From: a phage
Direction: 5' to 3' (one strand)
Sequence record: OZ336095.1
DNA: 64,000 nucleotides
The notes beneath the pieces are model-generated. The model had not been told where the DNA came from, searched no databases, and saw only the letters and a program-made list of their open reading frames with translations. The position numbers and the translations under genes are program-made. This document shows, piece after piece, positions 9,556 to 56,375 of this stretch (positions are counted from its first letter, which is position 1; each line of letters opens with the position of its first letter).

Positions 9556-9615
9556 TTTTACTCCCTCTAAAATCATTAACCCCATACATTACTGCAAAAA
9601 ATTATAAAAAGCAAG

Positions 9616-9645
9616 TTGACAATACACTTGACAAGGTGTTAATCT
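9616..9645 (+). promoter_or_regulatory. Sigma70-like promoter candidate
   Basis: TTGACA, about 18 nt spacer, TAATCT; contains recurring CTTGACAAGGTG motif. Confidence 0.4.
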
Positions 9646-9812
9646 TTGCGAAGTGGGTTTTTACTTAAAAGGTTACTTAACAGTTTAACTATACAGATAC
9701 TTTAAAACTCTTAAAAGATTATTTAATAGCTTTTAAAAAGCTTTAAAGTATAACGTATAGAATACGTTAAGATAAAAGATTAAAACTTAATAGTTACTTA
9801 AAAGAGGCTTAC

Positions 9813-16979: not shown

Positions 16980-17210
16980 ATGTTTAACAAAAGTAAAGCT
17001 GTGAGTCATGTAGCAAAGGTTGACAGCAAGATTGAAGAACTTGAGCGCATTCTTGCAAATGCCAGAGAGTCAATAATTAAAGAAGTTGAAGCTGTTGAAT
17101 CTCAAATGCAGCACCTAATGCTTAAACGTCAAGAGTTACGTGAGCATCTGGAATATATTGAAACACGAGAGCTAAAAGTTAACAGATTTTTAAGGAGTCC
17201 GAATGTTTAA
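16980..17210 (+). CDS. Hypothetical small protein
   Basis: ATG at 16980 after GAGAGAG (track start 16965 is TTG). Confidence 0.4.
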   Translation: MFNKSKAVSHVAKVDSKIEELERILANARESIIKEVEAVESQMQHLMLKRQELREHLEYIETRELKVNRFLRSPNV

Positions 17211-17958
17211 CTCAAGAGAATCAGTAAAAAACTGGAATCTTCGTTGTGGAAACACCCAAAAGCAACCTTACAGCAATGAGTATTGGGAATCTTTGAAATC
17301 TCAATCTCTGTGTATGCTTGAGGAAGCAAAAGAGCTTGTAAAAGCAATTGAAGAGAAAGACCCCATTGAGACACTGGATGCTCAGGCAGATTTGCAATAT
17401 GTTCTTGATGGTTTGATTTACCTGTCACAACATGACCATAACGGTGCTATGAAAGCTGTTTGTCATAATAATGACCTGAAGTACACAGATGACTATGAAG
17501 AAGCTTTAAAACGTCTTGCAGATATTGAGAAGCGTACTGGTCAAGAGTGTATCATCAGAATGTCAGTAGTTGATGGTAAAGAGTGGTATGCGATTGTTCG
17601 TGCAGCCGATGGTAAGATTATGAAGCAGTCTAATCTTCCTAAAGTGCAGCTTGGTGAATACATTGTAGAACTTGAAAGCCAAGAACTTTTTGTGGTAGTA
17701 TCTGAGACATGCGTTATCTGCAAAAGTATTGTAGGTAGCTTAAAGGATTTGGGTGTAGATGGTTTTGTAGAAGTTAATCCAATTACCTCTAAAGCAGATA
17801 AAGATTTCTGTAAAGAGAACGGACTATGGATTGCAGATATTGTCTACTATGATGGTGAGCAGTTCCATGTAACCTCATACCCGAAACTGAATTATGATGC
17901 TAATAACCTGAAGTGCTGGTTAAAAGGGGTTGGTTATAATGGATTCACAGAACATTAA
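17203..17958 (+). CDS. Hypothetical protein; N-terminal MazG-like NTP pyrophosphohydrolase-like region and C-terminal CxxC thioredoxin-fold-like region
   Basis: EEAKELVKAIEEKD...DAQADLQYVLDG acidic helix pattern; C-terminal VVVSETCVICKS. Confidence 0.3.
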   Translation: MFNSRESVKNWNLRCGNTQKQPYSNEYWESLKSQSLCMLEEAKELVKAIEEKDPIETLDAQADLQYVLDGLIYLSQHDHNGAMKAVCHNNDLKYTDDYEEALKRLADIEKRTGQECIIRMSVVDGKEWYAIVRAADGKIMKQSNLPKVQLGEYIVELESQELFVVVSETCVICKSIVGSLKDLGVDGFVEVNPITSKADKDFCKENGLWIADIVYYDGEQFHVTSYPKLNYDANNLKCWLKGVGYNGFTEH

Positions 17959-40593: not shown

Positions 40594-40678
40594 AGTACTT
40601 TACAGGGGGCTTAAAAGTTGATATCTTAAGCCCCAGATAAAGAGCTTTACCACTCAATCCTAAACTGGAGATTCTAAA
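40594..40678 (+). repeat. Cassette type 2 copy
   Basis: Hairpin variant gggggcttaa...ttaagcccc. Confidence 0.7.
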
Positions 40679-42451: not shown

Positions 42452-42536
42452 AGTACTTTACAGGGGGCTTATAAGTCTGTACAGTAAGCTCCCGATAAAG
42501 AATTTTATCACTCAATCCTAAATTGGAGACTCTAAA
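42452..42536 (+). repeat. Cassette type 2 copy
   Basis: Identical to copy at 43027..43111. Confidence 0.7.
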
Positions 42537-43026: not shown

Positions 43027-43111
43027 AGTACTTTACAGGGGGCTTATAAGTCTGTACAGTAAGCTCCCGATAAAGAATTTTATCACTCAATCCTAAATTG
43101 GAGACTCTAAA
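43027..43111 (+). repeat. Cassette type 2 copy
   Basis: As above. Confidence 0.7.
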
Positions 43112-43866: not shown

Positions 43867-43951
43867 AGTACTTTACAGGGGGCTTAAAAGTTGATATCTT
43901 AAGCCCCAGATAAAGAGCTTTACCACTAAATCCTAAACTGGAGATTCTAAA
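43867..43951 (+). repeat. Cassette type 2 copy
   Basis: As above. Confidence 0.7.
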
Positions 43952-46633: not shown

Positions 46634-46882
46634 ATGTCAACTATCCGCGTAACTGTTAATGCTTATGGCTGCCACGAACTTGATGCAAAATTCGATATCG
46701 GTGGAACAAATAACACCTTTGACCTTATCAAAATGCTGATTCAGCAGGTGCTACCAGATTATAACCCTACCGATGACTTTTGGAAGGACGCTGTAAAAGA
46801 AGCCATAAACGAGGAATATCACTACCACTACTGGGGAGAAAAAATTGTCTCCCTGTACTACAACAAGCAAGATTATAACTAA
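46634..46882 (+). CDS. Hypothetical protein (cassette ORF), 82 aa
   Basis: ORF track; last plus-strand gene before the repeat region. Confidence 0.45.
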   Translation: MSTIRVTVNAYGCHELDAKFDIGGTNNTFDLIKMLIQQVLPDYNPTDDFWKDAVKEAINEEYHYHYWGEKIVSLYYNKQDYN

Positions 46883-46920
46883 TCGACGCAGCGGGGCTAT
46901 TTAGCCCCAGATACCTTGAC

Positions 46921-46946
46921 AGCCCCTATTTAAAGGGGCTTTTTTA
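46921..46946 (+). terminator. Rho-independent terminator
   Basis: agcccct...aggggct hairpin followed by TTTTTT; second hairpin ggggctatttagcccc just upstream. Confidence 0.6.
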
Positions 46947-46950
46947 CGTC

Positions 46951-48504
46951 TATCCAATCCTTATACAATCCCTTTCCTTTCCTTTCCAGAATCTTACTAG
47001 ACCTTAAAAGCAATAACTCTATAGTCTACTCTATAACCTCTTATCAAATCAACTTAAATAAAAGCCAATAACCCCAGAAAGGGGATGGCCCATTTAAACG
47101 CTCTATAAAGCTCTATAACATCCTTATCAACCTAACTTAAGGGATTGCATTAACTCACCCTAAAAAGCCCTTTATAAAGCTTCCTAGAGACTTAAAAGAA
47201 TCTTATAAGGGTGTAAGCTTTATCGTCTCGTTAGTATTCTTGTGAATAACTAAACAACCCCTTGATAGTCACTAAAAAGTATGTTATAGGGGCTATAAAG
47301 TAGCTTAAAAGTTGCTTAAAAGTTACGTAAATGCTAGCCCCCTTAACATTTTCTTAACAATTTCTTAACAATCCCTACATAGTTATGCTTGTTAGAGACT
47401 TGTTAGCCCCTTGTTAAATCTCTGTTAAGACCACGTAAAAACCTTGTAAGAGTCTTTGACATAGCCTTAAAAGCTCCTGTAAAGCCCTATAAAGAGCTAT
47501 CCATACAGTTGAGGGGTAGATACTAGGAAGAGGCTTAAAAGAACTTATAAGGGGCTATAGAGAGCTTTTAAGAGGCATGTTTAGAGAATCACTAAGAGAG
47601 AAAGGGAACGATAAGAAAAGAGATAGTGACCATGTTAATAGCTTGTTAAAAAGATTAAACACTTGTTAGGAACTTGTTAATTATCCCTACAAAATAACTC
47701 TTTAAAATTAACTTGTTAGCTCTTGTTAGTCATCTGTTAAGATTCTGTAAAGTCTATGTATCAACTGTTAAGAAACTGTTACATCCCTGTTAGTTCTGTT
47801 AAGAGTCTATTAAGACCTTTGAAGAGTTGTTAAGAGCTTGAGAGAGTTGTTAAGAGATTGTTAAGGATATTTTAAAATTTTGCAAAGTACTTGTAAGGGA
47901 GTTGTTAAGGGTTACCAAGCAGATATACATCCTCAACAGATATTTTTGAGTTCCTTCAAAGACCCTAAAAAATGACTTGATAGCCCTATTTTATAAAAAT
48001 TTTAAAATTCTGAATAATTACCTAGACAGTCTTTTAAAAATACAGGCATAAACAGGCTTATAAGATACCTTGTTAGTACCGTGTTAGACCTTGTGAGATA
48101 AGGTCTGTAAAGATATTCCTGTTAAGTTTGTTAAAACAGTCTATATAGAGGCTTAGTAGCTCCTAGTGAACACCTATAGAGGGTATCATAGCTGACATAG
48201 AGATTAAGAGGTGTATAGGAGCTTCTAAGAGGGTGTAGAGAGATGGTTAAGGTGATTGTATAGGTTGTTAAGAAGGCTTGTTAGAGGGCTTGTTAGAAGG
48301 GTTATACAGAGGGGCTATTAAGACCACTAGATAGTTACTAAGACACTATATAGTACTATATAACTATATAGAGAGTAAGATTAAGAAGGTTGTTAAGAAG
48401 GATAGATATTTTATTCACATATGATGGTGACCCAGAGGTTGGGACAACCGATAAAATTTTATAAAAATTAAAAAGCCCCCGATTAAGGAGGCTCTTAAGA
48501 TATT
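46951..48504. repeat. 1.6 kb ORF-free region dense in short repeats
   Basis: No ORF of 60 aa or more on either strand; more than 25 copies of YTGTTAAG/YTGTTAG (some as CTTAACAA) and many CTTAAAAG/CTATAAAG/CTTATAAG units. Confidence 0.85.
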
Positions 48505-49098
48505 TTAAATCAGTGTTTCCAGAACTGTTTTCAGGGATGACTTAGTTGTCTGATAAAAATGAGTGAATCCGTTGTTGTTATCGAATATCTGCATCATAAT
48601 ATCATCTCCCTTGATTGGATACACTCGGATATCATAGTGAAACCCGTTAAAGACAGCAGAACCATTACAGAACACACTAAAATCGTCCACTGAGATATAC
48701 TCTTCATGTCCTGTGATTTTTATACAGACGCCTTTGCTCGGTCTCTTAGGGTTGATATCTTCCATCACAGACATACTCTGTCCACCAAGAGATACCATAG
48801 TGACCACTTTACGGTTCTTCTGTCTAAAGTACATTTTAACTTTCTGTAAAGTGTCTTCATAGAACGGATAAGACTTCTCTACAAAGATTCCTTCAAGTGG
48901 CTCTTTACCATTTTCAACTTCTCTGGTATGTCGTACTGCAAAGATAATTTGTTGGAACCAGTCAAGATTTTCTTCGGAGAGTGCTTCACGAACATCACTC
49001 CAGTCAAGGACTAGGTAGTTGCCTTCAACTTCTTTTAAGTTATCTTTTTCCATACCTATCACACCGTTATCGTAAAACTTGGTAAGCTGGTACTGCAA
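48505..49098 (-). CDS. Hypothetical protein, 197 aa
   Basis: ORF track; first gene of minus-strand block. Confidence 0.5.
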   Translation of the reverse strand: MQYQLTKFYDNGVIGMEKDNLKEVEGNYLVLDWSDVREALSEENLDWFQQIIFAVRHTREVENGKEPLEGIFVEKSYPFYEDTLQKVKMYFRQKNRKVVTMVSLGGQSMSVMEDINPKRPSKGVCIKITGHEEYISVDDFSVFCNGSAVFNGFHYDIRVYPIKGDDIMMQIFDNNNGFTHFYQTTKSSLKTVLETLI

Positions 49099-56148: not shown

Positions 56149-56225
56149 GGCAGACCTACAGCTTAAGTAAGATGGTACAGTAATCCATACAACAAGTCAA
56201 GAACTATTGCAAGTTAAAAAAGTTG

Positions 56226-56254
56226 TTGACAAAGTACTTGACAAGGTGTAGGCT
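56226..56254 (+). promoter_or_regulatory. Sigma70-like promoter candidate
   Basis: TTGACA, 17 nt spacer, TAGGCT; contains CTTGACAAGGTG motif. Confidence 0.45.
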
Positions 56255-56375
56255 TATAAATACTTAGAAGATAACTTAAAAGGTTCCTCTAAAAAGGCTA
56301 TTTAAACAGATATCTTTCTGGATATCTATCTTTTATCTTAAAAGCCTTTTAAGAGGTCTTATAAGAGGCATACCA

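Follow-up and report, generated by a model that had tools for sequence, protein, structure and literature searches.

A gene-free region between two convergent transcription units

The phage sequence analysed here (record OZ336095.1, 64,000 nt, referred to below as the window) contains a region of approximately 1.55 kb, at positions 46951-48504, in which the longest open reading frames (ORFs) on the two strands are of 35, 30 and 31 aa. The region is bordered by the last ORF of a plus-strand unit (46634-46882) and the first ORF of a minus-strand unit (48505-49098). A hairpin (46890-46909) and an intrinsic terminator (46921-46946), recognised in the sequence and by a terminator scan and kept in nine genomes, close the plus-strand unit, and the scan placed an intrinsic terminator of the minus-strand unit at 48471-48496 (minus strand). 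Because these terminators face inwards on both sides, transcription converges on the region and stops, in agreement with a first-pass annotation, made from the letters alone, which had described an ORF-free stretch of this length at a convergent boundary. As set out below, the region is very probably a concatemer junction, in a Felix-O1-like myovirus whose packaged DNA carries short, exact direct terminal repeats (DTRs), and the phased arrays of short motifs within the region probably guide cutting and packaging.

A coding role for the region was considered and rejected, all of its ORFs being of at most 35 aa and not conserved. The homologues of the 35-aa ORF (47555-47662, minus strand) are interrupted in relatives by stops or by (compensating) frameshifts. 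Between one and five short CDSs labelled 'hypothetical protein' are annotated in the homologous regions of H12, L27, UAB_Phi87, HY02 and other GenBank records, and these are probably spurious. Matches to the region were found in 256 phage records, 198 of which cover at least 80% of it, with identities of 78-93%. All of the matching records are Felix-O1-like myoviruses of the genera Felixounavirus, Suspvirus and Mooglevirus, and the window, judged by its sequence, is the DNA of a Felixounavirus. A search of 5,426 E. coli genomes and of the plasmids in PLSDB for satellites or plasmids that copy the junction returned no meaningful match.

Physical ends of related genomes

The GenBank records of H12, D4, NBEco005, SeKF_63 and HP1 all start at the homologue of position 47337; for D4 and SeKF_63 the record start falls at query position 438, which is the same nucleotide as 47337. 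Citrobacter phage vB_CbrM_HP1 has an annotated exact repeat of 570 bp at both ends, and NBEco005 an exact repeat of 651 bp. In both phages the two end copies show 0 mismatches, start with GCCCCCTTAACA (47337) and finish with TGTTAAGGGCTACC (47916). When 47337-47916 was used as the query, ZX4221, ECP2307, SPJ41, NBSal004 and others aligned over query positions 1-580 at record positions 1 to 591-694, and these four named records hold two copies each. Overall, the query was found at 27 more places than there were records, and no fewer than seven further records have their start or end at precisely its limits, with two copies apiece. Records from different laboratories thus share an identical start nucleotide (the homologue of 47337) or end nucleotide (that of 47916), as is the case where ends are fixed and sequence-specific.

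Experimental evidence exists for several relatives. The DTR of UAB_Phi87 was sized at 608 bp by Bal31 digestion and run-off sequencing, and a TerL phylogeny in the same paper agrees with a DTR strategy (PMC4837284). Repeats of 581 bp are given for Pr103Blw on the basis of PhageTerm (PMC8303462), and H12 and D4 were classed as DTR phages by the same program (PMC11737134). Known lengths range from 439 bp (Kolesnikvirus) to approximately 694 bp (NBSal004). Since both the record ends of relatives and the experimental DTRs fall at these limits, the region is a concatemer junction. On sequence grounds, 47337-47916 is homologous to the DTR of Felixounavirus, Mooglevirus and Kolesnikvirus phages, for which the physical ends are known from experiment or from reads, and by the same comparison the junction consists of the right-end unique flank (46951-47336), the DTR (47337-47916) and the left-end unique flank (47917-48504). 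The window holds a single, collapsed copy of the DTR, and identical copies at both ends are seen in relatives. In virion DNA the plus-strand unit runs toward the right genome end and the minus-strand unit toward the left end. Of the packaging options raised in the first-pass annotation, the terminal repeat is strongly supported, the centre of the region being homologous to the DTR of relatives. A headful pac site was rejected, as the relatives have unique ends with an exact short repeat and not permuted ends.

One further full-length match to the Felix-O1-type DTR (89.6% identity) lies at 135884-136463 of GU169904.1, a 147-kb record named Staphylococcus phage SA1, which suggests that this record is a chimeric or contaminated assembly.

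Organisation of the junction

The left flank of the junction (46951-47336), which adjoins the right-hand DTR copy in the virion, contains ten units of the form CT-N4-AG, among them CTTAAAAG, CTATAAAG, CTTATAAG and CTAAAAAG, and no TGTTAR. Tandem Repeats Finder (TRF) placed period-11 arrays in this flank at 47297-47331. The flank leads into the left boundary module (47307-47376, plus strand), in which ...GTTACGTAAATGCTA is followed directly by GCCCCCTTAACATTTTCTTAACAATTTCTTAACAA; record starts and alignment place the physical left end at G47337. In Salmonella phage FO1a (L003, 3397-3584) a tandem expansion of approximately 185 bp, comprising 5-8 copies of a 33/22-bp unit (AAGTTACTTCAAAGTAACGTAAAAGGGGCTTAA), lies just upstream of this boundary.

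The 580-bp DTR (47337-47916, plus strand), delimited by homology to the end repeats of relatives, holds 18 forward and three inverted TGTTAR units and ten other CT-N4-AG units. The three inverted units (TTAACA, minus strand, 47343-47371) lie directly inside the left end at 11-bp spacing, were found by both the motif scan and TRF, and are conserved. Together with four forward TGTTAR at an exact 11-bp spacing (47388-47428, plus strand, motif scan) they form an imperfect inverted arrangement. The motif scan then shows a central segment (47440-47632) devoid of TGTTAR, with a purine-rich stretch and the CT-N4-AG units CTTGTAAG, CTTAAAAG, CTGTAAAG, CTATAAAG, CTTATAAG and CTTTTAAG. It is in this centre that NBEco005 carries an extra ~70 bp, as two insertions. 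The right half of the DTR (47633-47908, plus strand) contains 14 forward TGTTAR by the same scan, phased at approximately 10-11 bp and multiples thereof. The repeat closes with the right boundary module (47877-47946, plus strand), ATTTTGCAAAG...TGTTAAGGGTTACC followed directly by AAGCAGATATACATCC, with the physical right end placed at C47916 by record ends and alignment. Read on the bottom strand, the right end begins GGTA(A/G)CCCTTAACA..., the inverted counterpart of the left end. The right flank (47917-48504) adjoins the left-hand DTR copy; it contains eight forward TGTTAR (48071-48396), which carry the array 480 bp past the DTR, and three CTATATAG palindromes at 48141, 48346 and 48364.

Two families of short repeats

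The TGTTAR family has the unit consensus (C)T-TGTTA-A/G-(G)(A) and is represented by 26 forward and three inverted units between 47343 and 48396, with a plus-strand density of 16.7/kb in the region versus 0.74/kb outside it. Its units are distributed as follows: none in the left flank, 18 forward and three inverted in the DTR, and eight in the right flank. The first 386 bp (46951-47336) are therefore free of the unit, and the earliest one starts exactly at 47343, 6 bp inside the left end. The first-pass annotation had counted more than 25 copies of YTGTTAAG or YTGTTAG, some of them inverted. A recount of YTGTTAR gave 26 matches (24 on the plus strand and two on the minus strand, within 47354-48396) out of 92 in the window, and the three TGTTAR units at the left end are indeed inverted. 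When k-mers were compared without bias against the remaining 62 kb of the window, the excess was 13-fold for TGTTA, 32-fold for TTGTTA, 80-fold for CTTGTTA and approximately 640-fold for CTTGTTAG.

The second family, CT-N4-AG, includes CTTAAAAG, CTATAAAG, CTTATAAG, CTGTAAAG and CTATATAG. Frames of the form CT[ATG][ATG]WWAG occur 41 times in the region (26/kb versus 2.1/kb), and 28 CT-N4-AG units are not also TGTTAR: ten each in the left flank and the centre, and eight in the right flank. Thus, the enrichment of such units seen in the first-pass annotation is real but their confinement to the upstream half is not, and the 'upstream half' in which it saw CTTAAAAG-type units corresponds for the most part to the right-end flank. 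The perfect palindromes that it reported are present, with CTTATAAG and CTATATAG found three times each and CTTTATAAAG once.

A closer look at the spacing of the TGTTAR units reveals helical phasing. The modal gap between successive units is 11 bp (8/25), and distances between pairs of units up to 70 bp apart cluster at 10-11, 20-22, 31, 40-44, 50-53 and 60-62 bp. Periodicity power is maximal at 10-10.5 bp, a value reached by 0/3000 random placements, and TRF independently returned mostly period-11 micro-arrays. The phasing places the sites on one face of the helix.

A scan of IMG/VR for three TGTTAR at a fixed 11-bp spacing returned at least 120 loci. Among the matches listed, dense TGTTAR arrays were found in Felix-O1-like or Kolesnikvirus-like contigs only, plus one unrelated 60-kb contig (L099, IMGVR_UViG_3300046374_000002). 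This contig carries a dense (T)TGTTAG / GTTAGT array at 60-260, within 260 bp of its end; it may represent another phage with short-repeat arrays at its genome terminus, or low-complexity DNA.

CT-N4-AG units were also observed elsewhere in the window. Two divergent promoter regions (9600-9812 and 56220-56375) each have a double TTGACA, at 9616/9630 and 56226/56239 respectively, the latter with a TATAAAT -10 box as well. Both are followed by a leader of 150-200 nt with about five CT-N4-AG units (ACTTAAAAG, CTTAACAG, CTTATAAG, CTTTTAAG). The left flank of the junction has units of this same family, which may point to a regulator, binding DNA or RNA, that is common to these sites. Moreover, paired units, CTTTACAG ... 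CTTAAAAG/CTTATAAG, 12 nt apart, occur in intergenic spacers of the early region at 40598-40610, 42456-42468, 43031-43043 and 43871-43883, and resemble the 57-bp direct repeats with a GC-rich hairpin described for Felix O1 (PMC3185647).

Conservation and a prediction in Kolesnikvirus

Conservation was measured on an alignment of nine genomes from three genera. The non-coding region is 76-78% identical in nucleotide sequence to Suspvirus and Mooglevirus, whereas both flanking genes are 64-65% identical in nucleotides and approximately 50% in protein. Within the region, TGTTAR positions were 0.934 identical versus 0.855 for the spacers overall (permutation p ~4e-4), and 0.887 versus 0.750 for the distant genera only. 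The copy number of the arrays varies by whole units of 11-12 bp in the alignment. Invariance is greatest at the two DTR boundaries, GTTACGTAAATGCTA/GCCCCCTTAACATTTTCTTAACAA on the left and TGTTAAGGGCTACC/AAGCAGATATACA on the right, where the slash marks the DTR limit. The left block is nearly invariant in the nine genomes and recognisable in Erwinia phage phiEa21-4 (Kolesnikvirus); AAGCAGATATACA is invariant in the nine genomes and present in phiEa21-4 too. Read inward, both ends open with one and the same module, TAGCCC..TTAACA-N5-TTAACA.

Phage phiEa21-4 is absent from the megablast matches to the region. At the syntenic convergent boundary its genome has an ORF-poor gap containing 18 forward and nine inverted TGTTAR, phased at 11 and 20 bp, and the left end has two inverted units. 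Also found in the gap are the blocks TTA/GCCACTTTTACATTTCGTTAACAA and ACCACT/AAGCAGATATACA, and its left flank has another unit, TTCTAAR (11 copies), in place of CT-N4-AG. From the boundary motifs alone, a DTR of 439 bp was predicted at 17028-17466. This prediction was borne out: the segment lies at positions 1-439, or at both ends, of SPARTY, vEam_PM_21, vEam_W_28, M7 and Hena2, and in IMG contig L043 the start is 3 nt off the predicted end. The shared plan and the confirmed prediction indicate that conservation across the subfamily extends to the boundary modules and the TGTTAAG arrays but not to the unit of the right-end flank, which has diverged. The conservation of the arrays spans phages of Salmonella, E. 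coli and Citrobacter through to those of Erwinia.

A proposed mechanism of packaging

By analogy with T7, each junction in replicated concatemers would hold one copy of the repeat. Nicks by terminase would fall at 47336/47337 (top strand) and at 47916/47917 (bottom strand), and the resulting 580-nt 5' overhangs would be filled in to give a full repeat at both ends of each packaged genome. With the same boundary module present in opposite orientation, both nicks could be directed by one mechanism of recognition. Sharing a face of the helix and, with few exceptions, a direction, the TGTTAAG/CTTGTTAG units may be where an oligomeric DNA-binding protein of the phage loads. Loaded on the array, this protein would be a functional stand-in for a small terminase, marking the junction and giving packaging its polarity, and the CT-N4-AG units would form a second family of sites.

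Several points weigh against this account. The ends of the phage in the window are assigned by homology, its DTR being 87-94% identical to those of other Felixounavirus records. In UAB_Phi87 the distance from motif to motif is 614 bp, 6 bp off the experimental length of 608 bp, and the offset of the end or nick from TAGCCC is not the same at both boundaries, the discrepancy being 4 nt. Nicking and fill-in as given above are borrowed from T7, whose repeat units are 13 bp apart and not helically phased, versus 10-11 bp here, so that the analogy would be architectural only. Moreover, insertions at most positions near the T7 genome ends are tolerated (bioRxiv 10.1101/2024.10.10.617714). Single repeat units are therefore perhaps dispensable and the arrays perhaps have another role; the boundaries may matter more. 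Finally, the searches returned no protein that binds the arrays: PHROGs and Pfam comparisons of nine neighbouring or TerL-adjacent ORFs gave only families of unknown function, and three proteins that came into question are poor candidates. One, a DUF7217 protein of 265 aa, has a structural annotation in relatives. Another, a 66-aa protein encoded next to TerL, is acidic. The third, a 75-aa ORF (63445-63672, plus strand, phrog_20550), overlaps the genes for tRNA-Ser (63384-63476) and tRNA-Cys (63481-63556) and is therefore probably not a gene.

TerL itself lies just past the end of the window (64000), after the 66-aa ORF. PDB sequence searches with three TerL-adjacent ORFs found nothing, and the Pharokka annotation of H12 lists no small terminase in the first 44 kb, a stretch that includes TerL. 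Likewise, no small terminase is recognised in Felix-O1-like phages in two papers (PMC3185647; PMC4837284). The binding-site array proposed in the first-pass annotation would fit the helical phasing, the preservation of motif positions above spacers and conservation above that of the genes, and no protein that would occupy it was identified. It is conceivable, though on balance doubtful, that the arrays (29 TGTTAAG and perhaps 28 CT-N4-AG units) are the assembly platform of an end-recognition protein forming a symmetric complex on both ends, which would make it a new, non-TerS packaging-initiation or 'phage telomere' factor.

Two observations concern genes of the window. The window holds 26 tRNA genes (58411-63556). 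The ORF immediately left of the junction (46634-46882, plus strand) encodes an acidic protein of 82 aa (pI 4.7, 9685 Da), a homologue of Felix O1 ORF51. A mass of 9679 Da is listed for Felix O1 gp23, found in CsCl-purified virions with 53% peptide coverage, in the genome paper (PMC3185647); the mass matches, and the 82-aa protein corresponds to gp23, a tiny virion protein from the extreme right genome end.

Alternative explanations

The arrays could instead serve to manage the ends. By analogy, a phage or host protein bound to them would shield the linear ends of incoming DNA from RecBCD, stage DNA ejection, or promote the repeat-to-repeat recombination that builds concatemers. The same inverted module opens both physical ends, the arrays fill the first and last few hundred bp to enter or leave the capsid, the gene directly to the left corresponds to a virion protein of 9.7 kDa, and in T5 an analogous untranslated, repeat-dense region is tied to injection arrest (bioRxiv 10.1101/866236). 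However, two-step injection is not reported for Felix-O1-like phages, and the gp23-like protein, at its acidic pI, is unlike a DNA binder. We consider this role unlikely; it is compatible with packaging from the junction and not exclusive of it. A T5-type injection stop signal in particular was rejected, with two DnaA-box matches outside the repeat here versus approximately eight ordered ones inside it in T5.

The ends of T7 carry secondary origins, and a replication origin, perhaps in addition to the terminal repeat, would account for the phased direct repeats as iterons and for AT-rich blocks as an unwinding element. The repeats are dense, and conserved AT-rich blocks are visible in the sequence and the alignment at approximately 47868-47890 and 47985-48010. 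There are five perfect matches to the DnaA-box consensus TTWTNCACA in the window, and two of them (TTATTCACA), oppositely oriented, are in the junction, one in each unique flank. That at 48411-48419 (plus strand) sits in a conserved block, kept in the six aligned Felixounavirus genomes and one base off in Suspvirus and Mooglevirus; that at 47241-47249 (minus strand) is lost in most relatives, which counts against an origin. DnaA boxes are present in the untranslated repeat region of the T5 terminal repeat as well (bioRxiv 10.1101/866236). However, DnaA boxes are not enriched window-wide, nor are matches to integration host factor (IHF), of which the region has a single consensus match. Moreover, the units are 7-8 bp long versus 17-22 bp for typical iterons, and no initiator gene is adjacent, the neighbours being small, of unknown function and devoid of Pfam domains. 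GC skew flips wherever gene orientation flips (at 10 kb, at ~42-48 kb, which includes the region, and at 56 kb) and, since it follows gene orientation, gives no site-specific signal. The exact match of the array limits to the physical ends is explained by packaging instead, and an origin here seems quite unlikely.

Improbable, in our view, is that the region is a regulatory sink or set of shared operators, in which a regulator active at early promoters too would be titrated or organised by the CT-N4-AG units. Clusters of these units do occur in the leaders at 9600-9812 and 56220-56375 (5 per 500 bp versus approximately 1), and in the terminator-containing 57-bp repeats of the early region (PMC3185647). 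The motifs are short and AT-rich, however, so that some enrichment is expected in AT-rich intergenic DNA. No regulator was identified, and TGTTAR, the dominant repeat, is at background elsewhere in the window.

The first-pass suggestion of a stop-codon-rich non-coding RNA gene, and its fallback of a decaying remnant of former genes, can draw on the absent ORFs and, for the RNA, on a few sigma-70-like matches inside the region, but both are highly improbable: the Rfam models gave nothing at gathering score (the lone sub-threshold match, E = 0.23 and 24.8 bits versus 55, lies over the minus-strand terminator, and no covariation test was made for RNA structure), promoter-like sites are not above chance (10 versus 6.5 +/- 2.1 expected), the terminators face inward on both sides, and the motif-specific constraint and the better conservation than in the flanking genes are the reverse of decay.

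Comparison with known systems

Terminal repeats of approximately 0.6 kb in Felix-O1-like phages are already published, and the GenBank record of HP1 annotates its repeat. By homology, the repeats of UAB_Phi87 (608 bp), Pr103Blw (581 bp) and HP1 (570 bp) are the same element as that described here, with the same boundaries; the available parts of the three reports give the existence and length of the repeat only. In the literature, no description was found of the arrays, the two motif families, their phasing, the inverted module, the extension to Kolesnikvirus, or the identity of the gene-free stretch with the junction. The paper on the Felix O1 genome (PMC3185647) has no discussion of the region, and in a Bas63 knockout library only genes were targeted.

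Few phages are used as much in diagnostics and biocontrol as Felix O1 and its relatives. Placing the junction allows their genome records to be opened and annotated correctly, and tells phage engineers which 1.5 kb to keep intact and where inserts may be tolerated. The phased candidate sites are, in addition, a concrete bait for the missing recognition protein, and the arrays have a modest chance of leading to a new end-recognition protein.

Lambda cosB R-sites and the pacL/pacR boxes of SPP1 consist of 3-7 small-terminase sites, at ends that are cohesive or permuted, and binding to them is demonstrated. The likeness lies in short phased repeats by the cleavage site, thought to wrap an oligomeric DNA-binding subunit. 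The number of sites is far larger here (~30-57), and binding is demonstrated there but inferred here.

The injection stop signal (iss) of T5 is a large, untranslated, repeat-dense region within the long terminal repeat, with eight ordered DnaA boxes, and is associated with two-step injection (bioRxiv 10.1101/866236). It shares with the junction a large gene-free stretch at a terminal repeat, with direct and inverted repeats, palindromes, conservation and DnaA-box-like sequences. However, the T5 terminal repeat is approximately 10 kb versus 0.58 kb here, and the junction has two partly conserved DnaA-box matches only, in the unique flanks outside the repeat.

The junction is built like that of T7. 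The 160-bp terminal repeat of T7 is said, in the work of Dunn and Studier in 1983, to be flanked by the short-repeat arrays SRL and SRR. In the T7 junction sequence we find the 160-bp repeat and 13 CCTAAAG units, all in one orientation and spaced by 13 bp, in both flanks and inside the repeat. Both junctions are therefore non-coding, with a short exact DTR, one 7-mer present many times in one orientation, and fixed sequence-specific ends. The two differ in the length of the repeat (160 bp versus 580 bp here), in the sequence of the unit and in its number (13 CCTAAAG versus 29 TGTTAR). The occurrence of the unit in both flanks of T7 is only partly matched, TGTTAR numbering 0 in the left flank and 8 in the right, whereas CT-N4-AG is found in both flanks and in the DTR. 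The three inverted units at the left end and the inverted boundary module shared by both ends are features of the present junction. T7 also has the phage-RNA-polymerase promoters phiOL and phiOR and the small terminase gp18, whereas here both flanking transcription units run toward the junction, and a small terminase is not known. Taken as a whole, the region is a T7-like DTR junction, an element of a known kind and not a new one.

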